Positions 50,681 through 64,000 of a stretch of 64,000 nt of DNA are shown piece after piece. Origin of the DNA: Desulfatiglandales bacterium (GTDB taxonomy: Bacteria; Desulfobacterota; DSM-4660; Desulfatiglandales; Desulfatiglandaceae); the NCBI GenBank assembly GCA_963666345.1, contig OY762721.1, positions 1,568,001-1,632,000 on the forward strand, read 5' to 3'. Position numbers and translations under genes: made by a program. Below the pieces are notes generated by a model that was not told where the DNA came from, did no database searches, and saw only the letters and a program-made list of their open reading frames with translations. Every line of letters begins with the position of its first letter. Within the stretch, counting starts at the first letter, position 1.

Positions 50681-50943
50681 AAGCTGGTTTTTATTTATTA
50701 TAGTTATGACGATTTTCCTCCATCTATCAAAAAGATGCCTTCATTCAGTTCACCCTTCAATCAACCCCGGTTGAATATGCTTCGCATTCAACGGGGCAGA
50801 CAATCACCAATCAACAATCCCTGGCCCAGACCCGGCTTTAATGAACGTGACTTCCAGCACTCCAATACTCCATTACTCCGTGAATATTCCCGATTAGCGA
50901 CCCTGAATGGGATTTCCAATACCCAGTACCCAGTACCTAATAC

Positions 50944-53640
50944 CTACCCTTTCCCCTTGATCGCCTCATGTAACACCTTGCTCAATGATTGGAATTCAAA
51001 TGGTTTGGGTATCATACCCTTAAAGCCATATTCCCTAAAATTTGCCAAGACCGGGTCGTCGGAATAGCCACTGGATACAATGGCCTTAACTTCAGGATCT
51101 ATCTCCAGCAATTTGTTAATCGCTTCTTTGCCGCCCATTCCGCCGGGGATGGTCAGATCCATGATGACGGCATCATAAGGCTTTTCAGATTTCTTGGCCG
51201 CCTTGTACATCTCAATCGCCTCGGCCCCATCCTTTGCAAATTTCGACTCATAACCCAGGTTTTTCAACATTCTTCCAAGCATTTTCCTTAACGATGCTTC
51301 ATCATCCATTACCAAAATTCTGCCTTGGCCTTTTATTAGTTGAACTTCCTCTTTTTCAGGGATCATTTTGTCGGAGGCGGGCAGGTAGATGTGCAATGTC
51401 GTGCCCACCCCTATCAGGGATTCCACGGTGATATGTCCTTCATGCTTCTCGATAATGGAATGGGCTGTGGCAAGCCCGAGGCCACTCCCGTCATGCTTGG
51501 TTGTAAAATAAGGATCAAATATGTTTGCAAGATGTTTTTCCGCTATACCCACTCCTTGATCTTTAATGGATATCCTGATGTATCTGCCAGGCTTGAGGGG
51601 CAGACCATGCCCATCGTCTATTGTCAGATTCTCGGCCTCGACCCGAATGGTCCCACCCTCCGGCATGGCCTGGTTTGCATTGATCACAATATTATTGATG
51701 GCCTGGCTGATCTGTCCGACATCAACCTCAGCCGGCCAGAGATCTTCTGCTATCGAAAGCTCGCATCGGGATTTTGAGCCTCGCAGCACAAAGGAAGGCG
51801 ATTCTTTGAGGATATCTTTGATTGAGGCGGTCTCTTTTATCGGCGCTCCTCCTTTGGCAAAGGTCAATAACTGTTTTGTCAGTGTCTGCGCCCTTATTGA
51901 AGCCTTTTCGGCTTCGCTTAACATTTCAAATGTTTCCCCATCAGGTGTCATCTGCATTTTGCCCAAGGAAACATTGCCGAGAATCGTGGTCAGGATGTTG
52001 TTAAAATCGTGGGCGATGCCGCCCGCAAGCAACCCCACGGATTCAAGTTTTTCAGCCCTTAAAAGCTCCTCTTCCAATCTCTTGCGCTCGGTAATGTCCA
52101 ATACAATACCCTGGTAATGTGTAATATCTCCTTTTTCATTTCTTCTTATGAATGTCCTATCATCAACCCATTTTGTTTCTCCATCTTTAGTGAAAATTCT
52201 ATATGGCTTGTGAACAAAATTCTCTATTCCTTTTTCGCTATTTTTTACCACTTCTTGTGCGACTCTCTCCAAGTCATCGGGATGCAACATTTTGGTATAA
52301 GAAATTTTTCCGGAGGCAAGTTCTTCCGCTGTGTAGCCTAATAGCTCTTTTATATTATCGGATACAAATTGAACCGGCCATCCCTCAGCATTTTTCCACA
52401 GAAAAACGACTGCGGGGCTTCTGTTTATTATTGTGTAAGATTCACGCAACGTTTCTTCTACCTGCATACGATCAGTGATGTCGTCGAAAACCGCAACAAT
52501 CTCTTCGGAAGGCAGACGGTACACAAAATTCTCATACCACTTCTGCAGACGATCGTCCTTGTATTCCTTGGCGGGAAAATGCTCTGATACCCCTGTTTTA
52601 AATACCCGCCGGAAGACATCCAGCAGCCCGAATTCTTTGATGCTTGAACGAACCTCATAAATCGATTTGCCAATAAGGCTTTCCTTTTGATTACCATCTA
52701 AGCGTTCACCCGCCTTATTGAGGTCCTTGAAGATAAAATCGTTTCCATTGTCACGTACTTCATATATCGCTACGCCGCTGCTGATATTGTCAAATAGCTC
52801 ACGGTATCGAGTCTCGCTCAGCCTATATTTTTCTTCACTTTTCTTTAATCTTCTATATAGAAGGGTATGAGGTTTTATCAAACCCGTCTCAACTATAGCT
52901 TTGTAGACGAAAAAAAAGGAAATAATCTTAAAATAGTGTCCAACCAGATTTGAGAAGCCATAGACATTAATATAAAATGTAAAGGCTAATTCTGCAGCCA
53001 TAGATATTATGATAGCTGCAATCAGTAATCGGTATACATCATTTTCAAATTCTTTTTGTTTTAGATATAAAAGAGCGATAGATCCTATGTAAATAATACA
53101 AATGACATACTCGCTGATTTTTTTGAACGGAGTTAGTCCGGTCCCTTCAACAAAACATACCGGAAAAATATTCCATAAAAAAACAGACAAGAAAATAAGG
53201 CAAGTGACAGAAGAGTATACGATAAACAATATGTTCAGTTTAAGCCTGCGGCCAAAGAATAAAGGCGCTAAAAAAAGAGAAAAACTTTCCATATATCGGG
53301 CTGCTATCCATAATTGAGTCGGTAAATCAGCGCCGTATCCCTTAAAGATACCCATACCAGCGTAGCCTAATGTGTGTATCAATTCTAAAATAGCGATGAA
53401 TAGATATGCAACACCGATGAAAAGAAGATAATTATTGTCCAGAAATCTTCGTGAATTCCAGGCTAATATAAAAATTCCGCAGGCTACGACAATAATGAAT
53501 ACTTCAGCGATACTGTGAAAAAGGAGATAACTGTGAAGAGTGGTGAGGTATAGCCCGACTAAAATAAAAATACCGGATATAATGATAACCCATTTGCGAG
53601 AGCCGGACGATTCTATTTCCATGATATAAACCCTTGCCAA
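50944..53640 (-). CDS. MASE3-PAS hybrid histidine kinase
   Basis: YLLFHSIAE, HTLGYAGM, TQLWIAARY, NLVGHYFK membrane sensor; PAS; GIAHDFNN; REC; start may be 53622. Confidence 0.92.
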   Translation of the reverse strand: MARVYIMEIESSGSRKWVIIISGIFILVGLYLTTLHSYLLFHSIAEVFIIVVACGIFILAWNSRRFLDNNYLLFIGVAYLFIAILELIHTLGYAGMGIFKGYGADLPTQLWIAARYMESFSLFLAPLFFGRRLKLNILFIVYSSVTCLIFLSVFLWNIFPVCFVEGTGLTPFKKISEYVICIIYIGSIALLYLKQKEFENDVYRLLIAAIIISMAAELAFTFYINVYGFSNLVGHYFKIISFFFVYKAIVETGLIKPHTLLYRRLKKSEEKYRLSETRYRELFDNISSGVAIYEVRDNGNDFIFKDLNKAGERLDGNQKESLIGKSIYEVRSSIKEFGLLDVFRRVFKTGVSEHFPAKEYKDDRLQKWYENFVYRLPSEEIVAVFDDITDRMQVEETLRESYTIINRSPAVVFLWKNAEGWPVQFVSDNIKELLGYTAEELASGKISYTKMLHPDDLERVAQEVVKNSEKGIENFVHKPYRIFTKDGETKWVDDRTFIRRNEKGDITHYQGIVLDITERKRLEEELLRAEKLESVGLLAGGIAHDFNNILTTILGNVSLGKMQMTPDGETFEMLSEAEKASIRAQTLTKQLLTFAKGGAPIKETASIKDILKESPSFVLRGSKSRCELSIAEDLWPAEVDVGQISQAINNIVINANQAMPEGGTIRVEAENLTIDDGHGLPLKPGRYIRISIKDQGVGIAEKHLANIFDPYFTTKHDGSGLGLATAHSIIEKHEGHITVESLIGVGTTLHIYLPASDKMIPEKEEVQLIKGQGRILVMDDEASLRKMLGRMLKNLGYESKFAKDGAEAIEMYKAAKKSEKPYDAVIMDLTIPGGMGGKEAINKLLEIDPEVKAIVSSGYSDDPVLANFREYGFKGMIPKPFEFQSLSKVLHEAIKGKG

Positions 53641-54014: not shown

Positions 54015-54914
54015 TCATTTGTCATCCGCCACGCACACCCTGTTCCTGCCCTCTTCTTTTGCCCTGTAAAGGGCGTCATCCGCTTTCTTGATCAACAAAT
54101 CAACATTTCCCCCAGGCTCAATAGAGCAGGAAGCCGTACCAAAGCTTGCAGTAATCCGAATCGATCGTGCGTCGTCCGGCAGCATGATTTCCATATCTTC
54201 TATTTGTCCGCGCATTCTTTCGGCAACTGAAGCGGCTTGCAATCCGTCAGCTCTCGGCAAACAAACCAAAAACTCCTCCCCTCCGTATCTCCCCAGAAAA
54301 TCATAGGGCCTTGCTGAAGTTTTTAATTGGTCTGTAAACCGTTGAAGCACAAGATCTCCGACTTGGTGGCCGTATGTATCATTGACTCTTTTGAAATGAT
54401 CGATATCTGCAAAAATAAGGGAAAGGGGTTTCTTTTCCCGTTGTGCCCGGGACATCTCTTGCTCCATTCTTTCCATAAAGGCTCTACGATTCAGCAAACC
54501 GGTCAAGGTGTCTGTGTTGGCCAATTGCAGTATGCGGCGCTCTAAATTGATGATCCTTTCACCTATCCGGGTTCGATACTTCAGTTCTTCCTGGTTAAAA
54601 GGCTTGGTCAAGAAATCATCCGCTCCCGCCTCCAACCCCTTGATGATATCTTTTTTCTCTCCCTTTGCCGTTAGGATTATAAAGTAAATATAATCGGATT
54701 TCTCCATATTGCGTATTTTCCGGCAAAGCGCCAATCCATCCATCCGGGGCATCATCCAGTCCGAAATAATGAGACTCGGTGATTCAGGTTGTTGAATGAT
54801 CTCCCAGGCCTCACCGCCATCAGAAGCAACCGTCACCTTATAGCCCCATTCAAGTAAATTTGCTTCCAGTACGCGTCTGGATATGGGGTCATCTTCAGCG
54901 ATCAGAATTTTCAT
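54015..54914 (-). CDS. Response regulator diguanylate cyclase (REC-GGDEF)
   Basis: SDWMMP REC; DIDHFK, RPYD I-site, RYGGEEF. Confidence 0.95.
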
Positions 54915-57910
54915 TTTTTCATTTCCTGCAAAACGATGTTCATTTCAGATACGAATTCGTTGAGAACTCTTTCAAGATCTGATAGTCCCGCCGCTGCCGT
55001 TGCCATTTCCCCTTCGTTTCCCAGTTTCTCAAGGTGATAGGATGCCTCGTATGCTTCCTTAGCTCCGAAATTACCTACAGCACCTTTCAGACTGTGGGCT
55101 TCTCTCTCAAGGATACCGGCATCGTTTCCTGTAATTCCTTCCTTGATCCTGGCTATATAATCAGAACAGCTTTCCATGAACATACCGGCGATTTCCCGGA
55201 AAAGGTCTTTATTGCCTAAAACTGTCTCCATGGCAACGGACAGGTCAAAAGTCTTTGGAGAAAAGGCTTTTGTGCTTTGTGGGGGCTGTGGTCGTTTTTG
55301 CTCTTTTTCACTGTGCGATTTACGGGCAACTTTATTGATGGCACTAAAAAGCACTTCCGGCTTGATCGGTTTGGACACATAGTCATCCATGCCCGCTTCG
55401 ATGCACTTTTCCCGGTCCCCCGTCATGGCATGAGCCGTCATGGCAACGATCGGAATCCTTTCGATTGACGATTGACGATTGACGATTGACGATTGGTTAG
55501 CGGTTGGTGTTTGTTTTGCCTGATCTCCGTCTTCCGTCTTCCGCGTTCCGCATTCCAAATTCCGAATTGCTTTTGTGGCTTCAAATCCATCCATTTCCGG
55601 CATCTGGATATCCATGAGAATCAGATCGAAATCCCCCTTTTTAAATGCCTCAACAGCCTCTATCCCGTTCGATGCCAGGGTAACCCGGTGCCCCCTTGTC
55701 TCCAAAAGCTTTATGGCCAGGGTCTGGTTTATCAGGTTGTCTTCAGCCAACAGAATATTGAAACTTTTCCGTTTTTCATAAATTTTATGGCGAGTGATGA
55801 CCGCAGGCATTTCTCCTGAGGAAAGCCCCATGGTCATCATGATGGCATCAAGTAGTTCCGATTGCTTTATAGGTTTGGGCAGATACCCTGAGATGCCGAT
55901 CTCTTTGCAACGATCGGAGTCACCCCTTTGCCCCATGGAAGAAAGCACGATAATTTTTACATCTTTTCCCGAAGGAGCGTCCTTGATTATTCTGGCTACA
56001 TCAAAGCCGTCTAATTCCGGCATCTGCATATCCAGTAAAATCAATCGATACGGCGTTCCGGAACCAAACGCCTCGTTGAAACGATCAATCGCTTCTTTAC
56101 CATTGGCCGTAATAGTTGGAACAAGGCCCCAGGATTTTATCATTTCCTGGAGCAGGATACGGTTGGTGTAATTATCGTCCACAATGAGAACCGGCATTCC
56201 CGAAAGATCCTGCGGTTTGGGACGCGGGTCTCTGATATCTTTCGAGCGGCTTAGTTCAAAGGAAACAGTGAAATGGAAAATGCTGCCCGGACCTCCAATA
56301 GGGAGTTCCCGGTTCCGGGTGTTGGAATCCTCCTCCAACCGAAACCTGTTCGGGCTCTCCACCTTGATCTCTCCACCCATCATCTCAACAAACTGTCTGG
56401 TTATGGATAGCCCCAGACCCGTGCCGCCGTACTTTCTTGTGTTGGAACCATCCACCTGCTCGAAACTGTTGAAAATTGAATCCAGCTTGTCCTGGGGAAT
56501 CCCGATGCCGGTGTCCGATACCATGAAATGGAGTTTCACCGAATCATCCGTCTCGGATTCCATTTCAACCCGGATCACGATTTCACCTTCTTCGGTAAAT
56601 TTAAGCGAATTCCCCGCTATGTTGACGATAATCTGGCGCAGCCTGCCCGGGTCCCCGATTAAAGCCGTGGGCACATCCGGCCGGATGTGGCAGGTCAACT
56701 CCAGACCCTTTTCGTGGGCCTTCAAGGCCAGGGTGTCGACAGCATTTTCAAGAGTGACCCGCAGGTTAAAATCGATGGCTTCCAGCTCCATTTTCCCGGC
56801 TTCGATTTTGGAAAAATCCAGGATGTCGTTGATCAGTGCCAGGAGCGAATCTGCCGACATCTTCGCCATTTCCAGATATTTCCGCTGCTCTTCGCCCAGG
56901 TCGGTGCCCAGGACCAGTTCGGTCATGCCGATGATCCCGTTCATGGGCGTGCGAATCTCGTGGCTCATGTTGGCCAGAAACCCACTTTTGGCACGATTGG
57001 CTGCTTCGGCCTCTTTCCTGGACTTCAAGGCTTCCCGGTTCGCTTCGGCCAGTTCCGCCGTACGCTGCTGAACCAGTTCTTCGAGATGCTCCTTATGGAC
57101 CTTGAGTTCGTCCCGGGCAAGGTCTCGTGAATATATAATCCCGGCTATCTGACGCATGGCGCGCGCCATGACCAGCAGGCAGATGGCAAGCGTCAGAAAA
57201 GTAATGGTCCATCGCGCGACGTTCAGTTTTGAGAGGGCGTCGTGACGTTGCCTGGCCATTATTTGCAATCTCTGGTTCGCTTCCTGAAGTCCCTTTGTGG
57301 CATCCTCACTCGAACGAACCAGATAGGGCAGCGTCGTTTTCATCTCGATTCGCGTCTCGCGGTGCAATTGCTCTATTTGGTCTGGATCGTTAGCCTCAAG
57401 CCGGCGTCGAGTCAAATCGGCGATGCGGTTAACGGCGTCTCGGATGTCGGGAATTCGAGGCGTCAGGTCGATCAGCACAAGCACGTAGCCTTCATCCGGG
57501 TCGGGAGTGTAAGCGATGGTTTCGCGGATGATTTCCGCGCCGGTCATGTTCGTGGCGATGATGTTGTGGTATTGGCCGCCCTTGCGAAAGACATTCAGGA
57601 TCTTTTTGATTTCGACAAGCGCCCCTTTAATACGTCCCTGCACGACAGTCAAATCCCTTAAATCATCGAGTTCGGTCAGTTTATAGACCTCCAGCTCGAG
57701 GTGAGTCAGCTCCTGATAGATAACGCGATCGAGCATTCGTCGCGCATGAAGACCGGCTATTTTTCTGTTATATGTCTCGTCGTGATGATGAAAGTATTTC
57801 TCCATCGCCACAATGACCGCAAGCCCTACGATGGCTACAAGCACGAGTACCATCAACTTCCGCTGTATCGGTTCTTTCATAAAATTGAATTTCATAATGT
57901 CGTCCCTCAA
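54911..57910 (-). CDS. Membrane hybrid histidine kinase (HisKA-HATPase-REC-REC-HPt)
   Basis: Two TM helices, [19 protein letters not shown], two REC domains, AHSLKG HPt. Confidence 0.93.
55463..55566. repeat. Two heptamer arrays inside a receiver-domain loop
   Basis: (GATTGAC)x4.7 at 55463-55495 and six YTCCRNN units at 55525-55566. Confidence 0.9.
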
Positions 57911-59106: not shown

Positions 59107-59364
59107 ATGCCCAAGACGCGTATCAATGTAAGCCTGGATCAGGACTTAGCCGATTTCGCCAAGGTTTTTGCGGCTGAAAACCGCACATCGGTTGCCGAAA
59201 TGTTCACCCAATACCTGCTGGCCCTGAAGCGGCGAGCCGAGAGCAAGCATATGGAAACGATTCTGGAAAATCCGGCTTTTCAACAGGCGATGGAAGATGT
59301 TCAGGACAAATTGCGAGCCGGGACAGCAGAGTGGCACTCATATGATGAGGTTTTCGGGGATTGA
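59107..59364 (+). CDS. Ribbon-helix-helix type antitoxin
   Basis: KTRINVSLD N-terminus, acidic C-terminus WHSYDEVF, SD AAGGAG, TGATG overlap with the toxin. Confidence 0.75.
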   Translation: MPKTRINVSLDQDLADFAKVFAAENRTSVAEMFTQYLLALKRRAESKHMETILENPAFQQAMEDVQDKLRAGTAEWHSYDEVFGD

Positions 59365-59675
59365 TGGAAGCCATATTCGAGACCGATTTCCTGAAGGCCT
59401 TCAAAAAGCACGCTTCGATCAGGAATCTTGTCAGGAAAAAGGTTGACATGATCATGGAAAACCCCGTTGCCTTTGGCGAACCCTTGAAAGGTAACTGGCA
59501 AGGATTCTATTCATGTCCCGTGAAGCGCAATTTCATCATCATATACCTGTATTGCGAAGCCTGTCGAAAAAAAGGTGATGATGCTGTCGTAGCCTGCTCG
59601 GATTGCCGGGAAACACCAAATCAGACCATCAAGTTCGTACTGCCCGGTCCTCACGATGATGCCTACGGCGCATAA
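59364..59675 (+). CDS. RelE/YafQ-like toxin with a four-Cys insertion
   Basis: FLKAFKK, ENP..GEPLKG.W.G.YS, GPHDDAY; CEAC-x10-CSDC. Confidence 0.75.
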   Translation: MEAIFETDFLKAFKKHASIRNLVRKKVDMIMENPVAFGEPLKGNWQGFYSCPVKRNFIIIYLYCEACRKKGDDAVVACSDCRETPNQTIKFVLPGPHDDAYGA

Positions 59676-59685
59676 CTTACTTCTT

Positions 59686-59718
59686 GAATGCGGAAAGCGG
59701 AGCCCGGAGCGCGGAAGT
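59686..59718. repeat. Heptamer array downstream of the four-helix-bundle gene
   Basis: GAATGCG GAAAGCG GAGCCCG GAGCGCG GAAGT. Confidence 0.8.
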
Positions 59719-60117
59719 TCATTTCCGTTTTTTTGCCGTCCTGATGGAGGCCACTACCATAGACAGGATCTCATCGGCCTCTTTGTACAGATCTGAAATC
59801 CTATTCTCATCCATCAGGCCGGATTCTTCGATCAGCTCCATCCAGTACATTGATTCATCCGTCTCTTCTTCCACGATCCCCATCTTGCTGATGGAATCAG
59901 CCATTGACCTCACCCGTTTGGCTGCCCGGTAGTTGGCTCCGACACTGGTGCCGCTTCGTAGCAATTGTCTCTGGATCACTCTTCCTTCGGGCGATTTAGG
60001 CAATGCATTAGCCAGCCTGATCACCCTCAACCCAAACTGTTTGGTTCGTCCTTTCAGTTCCTCCCCAGGCATTTCCCTGCCCCTCAGCTTCCGCGTTCGT
60101 TCATCCTCCGACTTCAT
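59719..60117 (-). CDS. Four helix bundle protein (TIGR02436 / 23S rRNA-IVP family)
   Basis: RTKQF.LRVI, QLLRSGTSVGANYRAA, EEETDESMYWMEL; ATGA overlap with the upstream kinase. Confidence 0.9.
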   Translation of the reverse strand: MKSEDERTRKLRGREMPGEELKGRTKQFGLRVIRLANALPKSPEGRVIQRQLLRSGTSVGANYRAAKRVRSMADSISKMGIVEEETDESMYWMELIEESGLMDENRISDLYKEADEILSMVVASIRTAKKRK

Positions 60118-63062
60118 TTATCATTACGTGTTCCGTCTTCCGCGCTCCGCGTTCCCAAAACCTCACGCACCTTGCGGGCCAAACCTTCCGGTGAAAACGG
60201 CTTTTCGAGAAAATTAAGTCCCGGGGCCATAACACCGTGATGAACAATAGCGTCGTCCGTATATCCGGACATGAAAAGCACCTTCATCTCCGGTTGCAGC
60301 TTTTCCAGACTCTTTGCCAGTTCTCTCCCGTTCATCCCGGGCATGACCATGTCGGTCAGCATCAGGTGAACCGGCCCCTTGTGTTCCCCGAACACACCGA
60401 GGGCCTCCCGGCCGTCCCCGGCGCACAGGACCTTATACCCTTGCTGCTTCAAAGCCTTGAGGGCCAGGTTCCTGACCATGTCGTCGTCTTCAACTACCAG
60501 GACGGTTTCCGAACCCCTCAGGGATTCTCCCTTTTCCTCATCTTTTTCCCTGATACCGACCGTCCCTTCCACCCTGGGGAAATAAATCTTGAAGGTGCTC
60601 CCTTTGCCAGGCTCACTGTAGACCCAGATGTTGCCTTTACTCTGCTTGACAATCCCGTACACGGTGGAAAGCCCGAGGCCGGTCCCCTTGCCCTTCTCCT
60701 TGGTGGTGAAAAAGGGCTCAAAGAACCGCTCCTGTACTTCCTTCGTCATTCCGGTGCCCGTGTCGCTCACTGCTAACATCACATAAGGGCCCGGTATCAC
60801 GGCAATGTGTTCCCGGGCATAACCTTCATCCAGTTCCACGTTGCGTGTCTCAAAAGTCAGAGTTCCTCCCCCGGGCATGGCATCCCGGGCATTGACCGCC
60901 AGGTTCATGAGGATCTGCTCCATCTGCCCGACATCCGCCTCTACCAGGCCAAGATCAGGGCTCAAGAGCGTTTCCACTTCGATATCCTCCCGGATGACAC
61001 GCCGCAGCATCCTGTCCATATTACCCAGTACCTGATTGAGGTCCAACACTTCGAGCTGAAGGACCTGCTTCCGGCTGAAGGCCAGGAGCTGCCTGGTGAG
61101 CACTGCCGCCCTTTTTCCGGCCTCCTTGATCTCTTTCAGGAACTCATAGATAGGCGAATCCTTCACAGCATCTGCAATCGCCAGTTCGACATTTCCGATG
61201 ATGGTGGTCAAGAGGTTGTTGAAGTCATGCGCAATCCCCCCTGTCAGAGTGCCTATGGCCTCCAGCTTCAGTGATTGGACCAGTTGCTTCTGTAATTTTT
61301 CATGCTCGTCTTCAGCCCGCTTCAACTCGGTGATGTCTTCAACGATACCCTTGTAATGCGTAATACGTCCGTCATGATCTCGAACGATACAAGTCCAGTC
61401 ACTGACTGTCTTCTCCGAACCGTCCTTTGTTAGGATGCGATACGGTTCGTGGGCAAACCCGGTCGTTTCTTCCTTGCTGCCGCCTTCAGCAAAGTCTTTG
61501 GCCACTCGTTTGAGATCTTCGTGATGAACGCAATCAACATAATTCACTTCTCCCGTCATGAATTCTTCCGCCGTATATCCAAAGAGTTTCTCAACATTTT
61601 CAGAAACAAACTCCACCGGCCATCCTTCCCGGTTCTTCCAGGTGAAGGCCACTGATGAACTCCTGTTGATGATGTCATACGCTTCCTTTAATGCCTTCTC
61701 CGCTTCCATGCGCTCTACGGCCTGCCCCAACATGTGTGCAATGCCCCTTATGAGTTCCTGCTCCTCCTTGATAAACGGCCCTTGGTCCGCCGCCGGTCGC
61801 TCCTCCATATAGAAGACCTCGACAGTGCCGCGAGTTTGCCCTCGAACGACCATATCGGCAGCCAGGCGCCATCGGTTTTCACGGAAAGGTTCCGAGGTAA
61901 CCGTGCAGTCACCCAGGCGCAGCCGGGCGCAAGCAATATCGGAACATTTCCAGCCTGATGGGATGAGGTTCACGATCAGACGCAGCGCGTCATCGACCGT
62001 CTTATTAGGTTCGGCTAAAACTTTTGAAATAGCATACAAACAGGTCTGTTCCTGGACGCGCTCCCGGACGAGATCCTCGAGTTTATCACGATGTCTTGCC
62101 AACTCCTCTTCGGCCCGCTTGCGCTCCGTAATGTCACGAATTATTCCTACCGTTCCAAGGAACACTGTCTTGTTGCCGTCAGGAGTGCCGGCGTAAATGC
62201 CCGAGCTGTTAATCTCGACAGTGATAACGTCCGGCCCTCCGCTGTGGAGCTCGGCCGGGACGGTCCAGTCTCCTCTCCGCGGCACAAGGCGCACCTCTAA
62301 TCCCATGGTCTTTCTCTTCCCGGTTCGTCTCTCGTCAAACACCCTGGGAGCACCTTTGGTGCCCGTGCTCTTATTCTTGTACTTAGGCAGAACGGATTCG
62401 CGGCTTACGTTCTCCACATCCTCGGGAACCATGATTTTGGAGAAGTGGGACCCTAAGAGTTCTACAGTGGCGTAACCCAGCGCTTTGACGGCGTCGTTCA
62501 GGTACGTGAATCGACCGTCCGTGTCGAGCCGGTAGACAATATCAGGGATGGTCGTGACCAGGCTTCTGTACCGCTCCTCAGAGGCGGTCAGGGCCACGAT
62601 CTTTTCGGCCAGCTCCGCGTGAGCCCGGTCCAGATCCAGGAAGACCCGTACCTTTGAAAGGAGAACGTTGGCATTGAACGGCTTGACGATGTAGTCCACT
62701 GCGCCGGCTTCGTACCCCTTGAAGACGAGCTCCTCGCCGGAGGAGAAGGCCGTGAGGAAGATAATCGGGAGGCGCCGGGTCTTGGCATCGCCCCTGAGGT
62801 GCCCGGCCAGTTCGTAGCCGTCCATCCCCGGCATCATGACGTCCAGGATCGCCACCGCGAAACCGTCATCAAGGGTTGCCGCCAGGGCTTCGTTGCCGCT
62901 GGTCGCCTCAATGATCTCAACATCCAGGTCGGCCAGGACCTTGCGCAGGGCGAGCAGATTCTCCTTCTTATCATCCACAATAAGTATCTTCTGCCTTCCG
63001 AGCGCGGAACCATTCGAACTCAAAGAGCTGTCCGGCTTCTGCTTCTTATCTTTTTCTGTCAT
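60114..63062 (-). CDS. REC-PAS-GAF-PAS hybrid histidine kinase
   Basis: N-terminal REC (LDVMMP), PAS, GIAHDFNN, GKGTGLGLS, C-terminal REC. Confidence 0.93.
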   Translation of the reverse strand: MTEKDKKQKPDSSLSSNGSALGRQKILIVDDKKENLLALRKVLADLDVEIIEATSGNEALAATLDDGFAVAILDVMMPGMDGYELAGHLRGDAKTRRLPIIFLTAFSSGEELVFKGYEAGAVDYIVKPFNANVLLSKVRVFLDLDRAHAELAEKIVALTASEERYRSLVTTIPDIVYRLDTDGRFTYLNDAVKALGYATVELLGSHFSKIMVPEDVENVSRESVLPKYKNKSTGTKGAPRVFDERRTGKRKTMGLEVRLVPRRGDWTVPAELHSGGPDVITVEINSSGIYAGTPDGNKTVFLGTVGIIRDITERKRAEEELARHRDKLEDLVRERVQEQTCLYAISKVLAEPNKTVDDALRLIVNLIPSGWKCSDIACARLRLGDCTVTSEPFRENRWRLAADMVVRGQTRGTVEVFYMEERPAADQGPFIKEEQELIRGIAHMLGQAVERMEAEKALKEAYDIINRSSSVAFTWKNREGWPVEFVSENVEKLFGYTAEEFMTGEVNYVDCVHHEDLKRVAKDFAEGGSKEETTGFAHEPYRILTKDGSEKTVSDWTCIVRDHDGRITHYKGIVEDITELKRAEDEHEKLQKQLVQSLKLEAIGTLTGGIAHDFNNLLTTIIGNVELAIADAVKDSPIYEFLKEIKEAGKRAAVLTRQLLAFSRKQVLQLEVLDLNQVLGNMDRMLRRVIREDIEVETLLSPDLGLVEADVGQMEQILMNLAVNARDAMPGGGTLTFETRNVELDEGYAREHIAVIPGPYVMLAVSDTGTGMTKEVQERFFEPFFTTKEKGKGTGLGLSTVYGIVKQSKGNIWVYSEPGKGSTFKIYFPRVEGTVGIREKDEEKGESLRGSETVLVVEDDDMVRNLALKALKQQGYKVLCAGDGREALGVFGEHKGPVHLMLTDMVMPGMNGRELAKSLEKLQPEMKVLFMSGYTDDAIVHHGVMAPGLNFLEKPFSPEGLARKVREVLGTRSAEDGTRNDK
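60124..60158. repeat. Heptamer array upstream of the four-helix-bundle gene, encoding the kinase C-terminus
   Basis: TTACGTG TTCCGTC TTCCGCG CTCCGCG TTCCCAA. Confidence 0.8.
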
Positions 63063-63080
63063 GTTCAGATCTCCTGTCTT

Positions 63081-63175
63081 TGAACTCAGAACTCGGAGCG
63101 CAGAACTCCTCTTGTCAGTCTTCCGCGTTCCGACTTCCGCTTTCTGCTTTCCGAATTCCGAGTTCCGAGTTCGAC
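63081..63175. repeat. Pair of mutually inverted heptamer arrays at the cheB 3' end
   Basis: TGAACTC AGAACTC GGAGCGC AGAACTC (63081-63108) and seven TTCYGNN units (63121-63169). Confidence 0.88.
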
Positions 63176-63772
63176 AAGCCGCTGCCCAATCTGCTCTAAC
63201 CCCAACACCTCGTCCACCACTCCCGCGTCGATTGCCGCCTGGGGCATAACCGGGTTTTGGGCGCTTGCCGGGTCCTGGGCGATGGTCATGCCCCCTGCCT
63301 TCTTGACCTCGCCCATGCCCTTGGCGCCGTCGGCGTTCGCCCCTGAAAGGAGAATTGCGATTACCCCTTCTCCCCAGGCCCCGGCACCGCTCTCGAAAAG
63401 AACATCAATAGACGGCCTCGACCAGTTGACCCGCTCGTCAATGGAAAGGGCAATGGTGGAACCGTCCCGTTCCACGAGCATGTGGTAGTTGGCGGGTGCG
63501 GCGTACAAGCGCCCTCGCTCGATTGGTTCCTTGTCGCAGGGCTCGATTACCGGAAGCCGTGTAGCGCGCGCCAGGTGCCGGGCAAACGATCCGTCGTCGC
63601 ACGGGTGCAGGTGCTGGACAACGAGGACCGGCAGCAGGAAATCCCCGGGAAGCTCCGACAGGATCGCCGTAAGCGCTTCGAACCCGCCGGCGGACCCGCC
63701 GATAACGATAGCGCGGAACTCGGAACGCGGAACGCAGAACTCGGAATGCGGAGTGTCAGAATCAGAGGTCAT
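63086..63772 (-). CDS. cheB: Stand-alone CheB methylesterase (no receiver domain)
   Basis: GGSAGG, VQHL, SRPSIDVLFES, SGANADG. Confidence 0.9.
   Translation of the reverse strand: MTSDSDTPHSEFCVPRSEFRAIVIGGSAGGFEALTAILSELPGDFLLPVLVVQHLHPCDDGSFARHLARATRLPVIEPCDKEPIERGRLYAAPANYHMLVERDGSTIALSIDERVNWSRPSIDVLFESGAGAWGEGVIAILLSGANADGAKGMGEVKKAGGMTIAQDPASAQNPVMPQAAIDAGVVDEVLGLEQIGQRLVELGTRNSESRKRKSERGRLTRGVLRSEF
63713..63754. repeat. Heptamer array downstream of the second four-helix-bundle gene, encoding the CheB N-terminus
   Basis: GCGGAAC TCGGAAC GCGGAAC GCAGAAC TCGGAAT GCGGAGT. Confidence 0.88.
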
Positions 63773-64000
63773 TTGCGTTTCCTCGCGGTCTTAATGGAAG
63801 CAACGACCATGGAAAGGATTTCGTCTGCCTCACGATAGAGGTCTGACACAAGCTCTTCTTTCATCAACCCAGCCTCGACAATCAACTCCATCCAATACAT
63901 GGACTCGTCGGCTTCCTCTTCAACGGTGCCCATCTTGCTGATGAAATCAGCCGTTGATTTAGCCCGTTTGGCCGCCCGATAGTTTGCGCCAACGCTTGTT
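63769..64000 (-). CDS. Second four helix bundle protein, 5' end outside the window
   Basis: Reads TSVGANYRAAKRAKSTADFISKMGTVEEEADESMYWMEL...RKRK*; close paralogue of 59719-60117; ATGA overlap with cheB. Confidence 0.9.
   Translation of the reverse strand, partial: TSVGANYRAAKRAKSTADFISKMGTVEEEADESMYWMELIVEAGLMKEELVSDLYREADEILSMVVASIKTARKRK

Follow-up and report, generated by a model that had tools for sequence, protein, structure and literature searches.

Four-helix-bundle genes framed by inverted heptamer arrays in a cheR–cheB–kinase operon of a Desulfatiglandales bacterium

Related systems

Genes flanked by inverted short repeats that are also found gene-less, often between the genes of operons, are familiar from the repetitive extragenic palindromic (REP) sequences and their RAYT proteins (REPINs), in which RAYT is a catalytic tyrosine transposase present in a single copy beside hundreds of REPs. 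The locus described here lies towards the end of a 64,000-nucleotide stretch of a Desulfatiglandales genome (G000:C1:1568001-1632000, hereafter the window). It is an operon for CheR, CheB and a hybrid kinase, encoded on the minus strand, in which genes for small four-helix-bundle (4HB) proteins of the family PF05635/TIGR02436 stand between complementary arrays of tandem heptamers. The 4HB protein differs from RAYT in having no known catalytic motif, many copies and local arrays. We regard it as moderately probable that the region holds mobile gene cassettes of the type of ribosomal intervening sequences (IVSs), which ride on host operons and are coupled to them in translation via ATGA overlaps.

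The IVSs in the 23S rRNA of Coxiella burnetii and Leptospira are the nearest likeness: elements of ~430-480 nt within the host RNA, with an open reading frame (ORF) of PF05635 ('S23p') in the loop of a stem. For the Coxiella IVS, PMC4990558 describes a length of 428 nt, a terminal stem of 28 bp with the S23p ORF in its loop, and cutting by RNase III in mid-stem. The cassettes of the present operon share terminal inverted repeats that close a predicted stem around an S23p ORF, here of 19-29 bp. In contrast to the IVSs, they are located between protein-coding genes of an operon, have arms of tandem heptamers that are read as the tails of host proteins, and are bordered by ATGA overlaps; if RNase III excised them, host reading frames would be severed. 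None is inserted in the 23S rRNA gene, which occurs once in the genome (606500-609522), without a PF05635 match. A search of Rfam with eight loci (27,108 bases, E<=1) yielded only a chance-level match to ASdes (23.1 bits against a gathering threshold of 40, E 0.35).

Hairpin-forming tandem heptamers are known from cyanobacteria, for which the name short tandemly repeated repetitive (STRR) sequences was coined, e.g. between hupS and hupL (PMC2670836). Further types are GGGAATC of Xanthomonas and GGGGATT of Nostoc (PMC4692102) and TAACTGA of Beggiatoaceae (PMC4679880). As presented in the accessible text of these sources, they are tandem 7-base units in intergenic or intercistronic positions, some of them in inverted, hairpin-forming pairs, and their length varies between close relatives. 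Unlike these, the arrays described here are tied to the 4HB family, confined to two operons and partly coding; tandem heptamers are common to both, and most arrays here are translated as protein tails or loops. The accessible text of PMC4679880 and PMC4692102 contains no occurrence of 'S23', 'four helix' or 'intervening sequence', and no paper linking the TIGR02436/PF05635 family to heptamer arrays or to such operon cassettes was found in a search that left subscription journals and supplements aside. Heptamer arrays and intergenic hairpins are already described; added here are a single operon with several slots, which are variously filled, empty, decayed, nested or in frame, the restriction of one heptamer type to a single locus, a cassette coupled through ATGA at either side, and a swap between near relatives.

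PF05635 is furthermore given as the commonest domain linked to diversity-generating retroelements (DGRs) in the accessible text of PMC10053308. The DGR accessory protein Avd is described as a pentamer, all five protomers of which grip an RNA stem-loop (bioRxiv 10.1101/2023.10.23.563531). The 4HB proteins share the fold of Avd, with 13% identity in the structural alignment. The cassettes differ from the genetic setting of Avd in that no reverse transcriptase (RT) is adjacent and no template and variable repeats were seen; an identity with DGRs was rejected for want of the adjacent RT.

Cassettes of the cheR–cheB–kinase operon

Besides two intact PF05635/TIGR02436 genes, the operon contains a gene-less hairpin, a third, decayed cassette and, in loops of protein-coding sequence, orphan arrays. 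On the minus strand, which carries all operon features given below, positions 59686-64000 comprise from 5' to 3' the gene 4HB#2, a TTCCG-type array, cheB, a CGGAA-type array with its complementary array 12 nt further on, the kinase gene, another CGGAA-type array, 4HB#1 and a final TTCCG-type array. In mRNA sense, each intact 4HB gene possesses a CGGAA-type array upstream and a TTCCG-type array downstream. A preliminary description, made from the window alone, had given this order of genes and arrays and the two mirrored array types, all of which are present in the sequence as it stated.

The gene of cassette 2, 4HB#2 (117 amino acids), covers 63769..64000, where it is cut by the window end, and extends as a whole to window-equivalent position 64122. 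The 3' arm (63712..63752) is TTCCG-type on the mRNA, comprises 5.9 units and is translated as PHSEFCVPRSEF. A CGGAA-type array upstream of 4HB#2 had been predicted to lie beyond the window and is found at window-equivalent positions 64127-64157, where it forms the C-terminal tail of cheR. The gene is joined to both neighbours by ATGA overlaps, cheR/4HB#2 beyond the window and 4HB#2/cheB within it. The stand-alone CheB methylesterase, a host gene (63086..63772; Pfam CheB_methylest, E 8.3e-57), begins with the ATG that overlaps the 4HB#2 stop; its N-terminal 21 residues are translated array, and the Pfam match begins at residue 22.

The junction of cheB and the kinase gene is occupied by a hairpin with the same arm types as the 4HB cassettes and no gene between them. 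Its 5' arm (63121..63172) is CGGAA-type, has 7.4 units and is translated as the CheB C-terminal tail GTRNSESRKRKSER. A spacer of 12 nt (63109-63120) separates it from the 3' arm (63082..63108), which holds the cheB stop codon and was delimited by Tandem Repeats Finder together with inverted repeats. Tandem Repeats Finder returns period-7 arrays at 63082-63108, 63121-63172 and 63712-63752. An origin of the empty hairpin by deletion from a 4HB#2-like cassette was considered and rejected, the sharing between its loop and the cassette ends, a 6-mer and a 10-mer, being too little.

Cassette 1 follows the hybrid histidine kinase, a host gene (60114..63062) with the domain order REC-PAS-PAS-HisKA-HATPase-REC, the stop of which overlaps the start of 4HB#1 (ATGA). 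The 5' arm (60122..60155), CGGAA-type on the mRNA, is translated as the kinase C-terminal tail GTRSAEDGTRN. 4HB#1 (59719..60117) is 132 amino acids long from the ATG that overlaps the kinase stop; in an alignment of starts, the start homologous to that of its relatives is an internal ATG at 60072. The 3' arm (59686..59717), TTCCG-type on the mRNA with ~4.5 units, forms an inverted repeat with 60137-60155: 59699-59717 and 60137-60155 are complementary over 19 nt at 89%. The perfect 13-bp inverted match of the preliminary description is contained in this stretch, and the back-to-back arms without a gene, the ATGA overlaps kinase/4HB#1 and 4HB#2/cheB and the three quoted peptide tails as translated arrays are likewise borne out.

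More arrays and cassette remnants surround these. The N-terminal tail of the kinase contains an array remnant (62990..63025), at the place of which a near relative (L015) possesses a longer TTCCG array. Orphan arrays are inserted in frame into the alpha3-beta4 loop of a REC domain (55462..55568) of the next hybrid kinase (54911-57910), CGGAA-type first and CAATCGT-type second on the mRNA. Beyond the window end, farther upstream in the operon, a frameshifted third 4HB gene is found between GATTG-type and CAATC-type arrays, a fragment of the 3' end of a fourth 4HB gene is fused to the cheR start, and the GATTG array is preceded directly by the initial 12 bases of a 4HB#2-like gene, which in turn follow a CGGAA array. 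The upstream hybrid kinase carries further CGGAA/TTCCG arrays in a domain linker, in the HATPase loop and in the REC alpha3-beta4 loop.

Both intact genes are clear members of their family. 4HB#1 matches PF05635 with 60 bits (E 3e-16; cut-off 33.8) and the window part of 4HB#2 with 39.5 bits, and TIGR02436 scores 82.7 bits for 4HB#1 (E 2e-23) and 87.8 bits for 4HB#2 (cut-off 24). 4HB#1 also matches the PDB entry 2rld with E 3.8e-17. The AlphaFold model of 4HB#2 consists of four helices (predicted local distance difference test, pLDDT, 95.9; predicted template modelling score, pTM, 0.87). According to Foldseek it is closest to 2rld (template modelling score, TM, 0.86-0.93) and 2gsc (0.83-0.86), then to Avd (4dwl, 0.78/0.85), and it also matches the entries 8ub7 and 8ubb of DGR ribonucleoproteins. 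The entries 2rld (BT_0352 of Bacteroides thetaiotaomicron) and 2gsc (Xcc0516 of Xanthomonas campestris) each list five chains A-E.

In RNA folding, the 4HB#2 cassette is predicted to possess a closing stem of ~29 bp formed from both arms (63712-63752 / 64127-64157, z -3.3) and the 4HB#1 cassette one of ~19 bp (z -2.5); both stems are present in the minimum free energy (MFE) as well as in the centroid structure. The predicted fold of the gene-less hairpin has an MFE of -47.4 kcal/mol (z -4.0), and 0 of 200 shuffles are as good.

Distribution, orientation and turnover

A query alignment of 4HB#1, 4HB#2 and one relative's copy yielded 324 encoding places, from which 80 loci of many phyla were kept. 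With 100-nt flanks and a period-7 score of at least 14/21, 79 of these are scorable (one flank is too short). Period-7 arrays are present in the upstream flank of 57 loci, in the downstream flank of 54 and in both flanks of 39, against 13 of 480 background windows from the same loci (2.7%); any other period from 5 to 10 occurs in at most 4 of the 79. Among the 39 two-sided loci, the units of the two flanks are reverse complements of each other, one mismatch being allowed, in 26, distributed over 25 unit types (mismatched pairs as control: 201/1482), and the upstream unit is purine-rich in 34. Array length is typically 4-5 units (medians 4.3 and 4.1, 22 loci). Duplex energies of true arm pairs have a median of -49.3 and those of mismatched pairs one of -36.9, with 17 of 79 loci under the 5th percentile; as a control this is weak, the CGGAA unit being common to many loci. 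A second set of 28 TIGR02436 loci, drawn independently from relatives and belonging mostly to the other protein class, has arrays in 19 upstream and 14 downstream flanks.

The heptamer is shared by 91% of pairs at 80% protein identity or more and by 7% at 40-50% (Spearman -0.40); because unit type tracks protein identity, the cassette appears to be inherited as a unit. Exceptions exist, with proteins 71-79% identical and yet flanked by different units. Proteins of 67-78% identity with the same CGGAA arms are found in records labelled Bipolaricaulota, Thermotogae, Brocadiaceae and Verrucomicrobia. Six loci (four distinct) are located on predicted viral contigs, three of the six with arrays. In three records of Desulfobacteraceae or Deltaproteobacteria (L013, L019, L022), a TTCCG-type array is contained in an N-terminal extension of the 4HB ORF and a CGGAA array is found farther upstream, the layout of an empty hairpin directly before a 4HB gene.

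Of 76 loci, 61 have the 4HB gene and the gene upstream on the same strand; for the gene downstream this holds in 57 of 77, and in 1 of 73 both flanking genes are on the opposite strand. The 4HB stop is preceded by A (ATGA) in 35 of 79 loci. A same-strand downstream ORF opens at an ATG overlapping this stop in 17 of 57 cases, and the upstream ORF ends in an overlap with the 4HB start in 5 of 61. The purine-rich arm is transcribed before its partner in 5 of 5 gene-less hairpins examined.

A comparison at close range is offered by the near relative L015/G031 (the L015 record is labelled Bipolaricaulota), with 88-94% identity in cheR, 4HB#2, cheB and both kinases. Its slot between kinase and cheR contains another 4HB cassette, with GGATTTT/AAAATCC arms and a gene interrupted by an insert (L015:330-440), which, in translation, presumably resembles a GIY-YIG nuclease domain of small size. 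After a few units of the upstream array the two loci cease to be similar, and their similarity resumes exactly at conserved cheR codons. Both loci have the gene-less hairpin, its arms differing in unit number; the mini-hairpin of the HATPase loop is replaced in L015 by one of a different heptamer type. The REC-loop array has equal length in both and nearly identical flanks, with all units altered alike.

Among the genomes of 30 relatives no close orthologous locus is present, the best CheB match being 42% identical. This match (G013, same family) belongs to an operon of the order cheR, gene-less hairpin, cheB, 4HB cassette and PAS kinase; its filled and empty junctions are thus the reverse of those described here. 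Filled/empty differences among relatives, as anticipated in the preliminary description, are represented by this exchange and by the different cassette in the same slot of L015.

Within the genome itself, a strict test (three TTCCG or CGGAA units at period 7, at most one mismatch, over 4,162,108 bases) finds 8 arrays, all of them at 1623525-1634803 (~11 kb); the same test at periods 5, 6, 8, 9, 10 and 11 gives 0-3 matches each. A general scan returns 30 arrays of period 7, besides 1, 3, 1 and 3 at periods 5, 6, 10 and 11, 18 at period 9 and 32 at period 8. The period-7 arrays are concentrated at two places, the present locus and a cluster of gas-vesicle genes (2.954-2.966 Mb), and 19 of the 30 are situated 12 kb or less from a heptamer-flanked 4HB gene. 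PF05635 has 36 matches in the genome, 24 of them above cut-off. As the genome-wide companion of all 36 matches the TTCCG type was rejected, being present only at this locus, with only 4 of the 30 period-7 arrays within 300 nt of PF05635. Elsewhere the 4HB copies are flanked by different heptamers or by an octamer. In 31 related genomes, counts of a GGA-every-7 pattern follow those of TIGR02436 (Spearman 0.62; the genomes are kin and of unequal size, and the control pattern also catches arrays), and the 7 of them without TIGR02436 possess 0-4 period-7 GGA/AGG pattern matches each.

Most PF05635 copies belong to a second class (class A), 2-3 intact and ~25 decayed, whose flanking inverted arrays have period 8 and are all of one type. 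Of the 32 arrays of period 8, 18 lie no farther than 300 nt from a PF05635 match, as against 0 of the 18 of period 9. The class-A genes are located at ~30 places (e.g. G000:C1 3089145, 2066743, 3246372), none in the window, with arrays NTTCAAGG upstream and CCTTGAAN downstream and a conserved small hairpin at the element end, and look like a burst of a related element. One decayed class-A element with its terminal hairpin is followed after ~800 nt by a group II intron RT (RVT_1 + GIIM; L135:6560-9235, G000:C1:2890560-2893235) and then by a Tn5-type transposase gene.

The gas-vesicle cluster (L094, G000:C1:2953001-2967000) encodes gvpF/L, a gvpN-like AAA protein, gvpG, gvpK, gvpA/J, an ArsA-like ATPase, a PAS kinase and a REC protein, with GATTG/CAATC arrays at almost all gene junctions. 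It comprises four pairs of opening and closing arrays with loops of 48-76 nt, each loop beginning with a conserved AAGGAA, and two 4HB genes, one with GGTGACC/GATCACC arms. Arrays of GTTACTG/GTTATTG are found at G000:C1:1650590, 1696527, 1761219 and 1913966, each before the same conserved ~100-nt stretch, perhaps a repeated element or a small RNA; one of them lies ~200 nt upstream of the RNase III gene. Gene-less hairpins of a third heptamer type (TCAGC, then GCTGA) are present at G000:C1:750256, 1548738 and 1762831, distant from PF05635 matches.

Interpretation of the cassettes

The module that we propose would consist of a purine-rich heptamer array, a 4HB gene and a complementary pyrimidine-rich array, occupying the gene junctions of the cheR–cheB–kinase operon in the orientation of the operon. 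Since the cassettes point the same way as the operon, they would ride on its transcript. Owing to the ATGA stop/start overlaps at the edges, both the end of the upstream host gene and the start of the downstream one would fall within the cassette, so that the arrays would be translated as harmless tails and polarity would be avoided. Both arms could pair in the transcript into a stem of 19-29 bp around the gene, the layout of the ORF-bearing 23S rRNA IVSs. By likeness to the Coxiella IVS and to Avd, these stems would act in RNA, where they may form in vivo and be cut by RNase III (rnc is encoded at 1913111-1913761), and the 4HB product would bind them, possibly as an Avd-like pentamer that grips the stem of its own cassette. 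The arrays would evolve fast by slippage, concerted evolution and recombination, which may give rise to swapped cassettes, gene-less hairpins ('empty sites'), nested and decayed copies, and local spread into tolerant protein loops.

This reading draws on anatomy, arm co-variation, co-orientation with the neighbours, turnover between relatives and local clustering. It agrees with the preliminary description, which had proposed a small operon-invading element with paired heptamer stems: gene and arms recur together across phyla, the arms co-vary, a cassette is swapped, and stems are predicted. Of the contrary observations named there, which are equally frequent and randomly oriented arrays at junctions without 4HB genes, a missing array upstream of 4HB#2 and a lack of filled/empty polymorphism among relatives, none was made.

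Several results weigh against mobile IVS-type cassettes. The cassette encodes no transposase, integrase or RT. Three near-identical metagenomic populations have the same structure, with no cassette gained or lost; compared along 9.5 kb of the locus, contigs from three marine-sediment metagenomes and a fourth run bridge both cassettes, their structure unchanged. In the cross-phylum sample the upstream array is unclear in 22 and the downstream array in 25 of 79 loci, and in 13 of 39 pairs the arms depart from complementarity by more than one mismatch. The sense duplex is only slightly stabler than the antisense duplex (48 vs 31 of 79, Wilcoxon p 0.018, loci non-independent). Finally, since the cheR stop codon and the cheB start codon both sit inside the loop, IVS-like cleavage of the arms would deprive cheR of the one and part cheB from the other, at a cost to the host; translation may therefore keep the stem open, or cutting may itself be a cost or a switch.

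A different role, which we consider unlikely, is that of regulatory punctuation by the host: intercistronic RNA hairpins would set mRNA stability or translational coupling, and a 4HB pentamer would act in trans as a heptamer-specific RNA-binding regulator with one protomer per unit. Two operons, this one and the gas-vesicle cluster, have arrays at nearly all junctions, with a heptamer type and 4HB genes particular to each, which fits such a role, as does the constant lead of the purine-rich arm in the gene-less hairpins. Also in its favour are the typical 4-5 units of an array, the five chains of 2rld and 2gsc and the five Avd protomers that, according to the accessible text of bioRxiv 10.1101/2023.10.23.563531, contact the RNA stem-loop, and an effect on transcript stability or translational coupling is suggested for STRR sequences in PMC2670836. 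On the other hand, many 4HB copies are decayed or frameshifted while arrays persist (the ~25 class-A copies, the third cassette), closely related proteins (71-79% identical) have different units, and near relatives swap cassettes with the host genes unchanged. The cross-phylum spread at up to 78% protein identity better fits a mobile element.

That the arrays are a passive by-product, in which slippage-prone heptamers spread by replication errors and local gene conversion and the 4HB genes are trapped passengers, stem and protein being without a role, appears decidedly improbable. It would account for units that change in concert and vary in number between near relatives, for the hairpins of other heptamer types that stand, gene-less, at a distance from all 4HB genes, and for two REC-loop arrays that start at natural Ile-Arg codons already containing the unit core; heptamer repeats are over-represented in bacteria, with slippage proposed as the cause, in the accessible text of PMC4692102. 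It leaves unexplained the complementarity of the arms across 25 unit types, the purine-rich upstream arm of 34 of the 39 two-sided loci, the presence of one small protein family between arms in unrelated phyla, and the near absence of the period-7 GGA/AGG pattern from the relatives without TIGR02436. Least probable of all is a non-autonomous retroelement, in which an Avd-like 4HB pentamer would bind the stem formed by the flanks of its gene and recruit an RT in trans, the cDNA replacing or seeding arrays by homology: the fold match to Avd and the DGR ribonucleoproteins, the pairing of sequences up- and downstream of the template in DGR RNA, where Avd grips the stem-loop (as given in bioRxiv 10.1101/2023.10.23.563531), the group II intron RT in the genome and a near-relative swap that begins and ends inside arrays would suit it, but no RT stands beside any cassette here, the only two RVT_1 matches (2892162 and 3778801) are more than 1.2 Mb off, the former belongs to a group II intron (maturase domain), and no template/variable repeat pair is seen.

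A wider reading than that of IVS-type cassettes can be put forward only tentatively, and we doubt it more than we believe it. TIGR02436 proteins would be the dedicated partner of heptamer repeats, a pentamer binding a stem or strand of about five units with one protomer per unit, in the way Avd holds its stem-loop, and gene and arms would form a self-propagating, array-copying system, possibly with an RT borrowed in trans; arrays would be copied, with or without the gene, into nearby transcribed DNA. Such a system would account for the ORF-bearing rRNA IVSs, the STRR-type hairpins and the excess of 7-base repeats.

The locus, an unusually rich example, and its cross-phylum comparison join three puzzles that had been separate for decades: the ORF-bearing 23S IVSs, a many-paralogue four-helix-bundle family without an assigned function, and the bacterial excess of heptamers, which the recurrence of cassettes in many phyla may explain. 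If the 4HB protein does bind its own arms, it would represent a new class of repeat-specific nucleic-acid binder and suggest a possible origin of the DGR accessory protein. The cassettes alter host proteins through tails and loop insertions and are relevant to annotation and to protein evolution.

Minor features were noted in the surroundings. Two small overlapping ORFs on the plus strand of the window (59107-59675) converge on the operon end, one a DUF6364 protein of 85 amino acids and the other of 104 amino acids without a Pfam match, in an arrangement that resembles a toxin-antitoxin pair. The gap downstream of an 898-amino-acid gene (50944-53640) contains, at window positions 50800-50944, period-7 ACAATCA and CCAATAC arrays and the period-8 array ACTCCAAT. 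A figure legend of PMC10910872, a survey of clustered regularly interspaced short palindromic repeats (CRISPR), lists '23S rRNA IVP' with other proteins associated with CRISPR arrays; the tandem repeats beside such genes may there have been taken for CRISPR-like ones.

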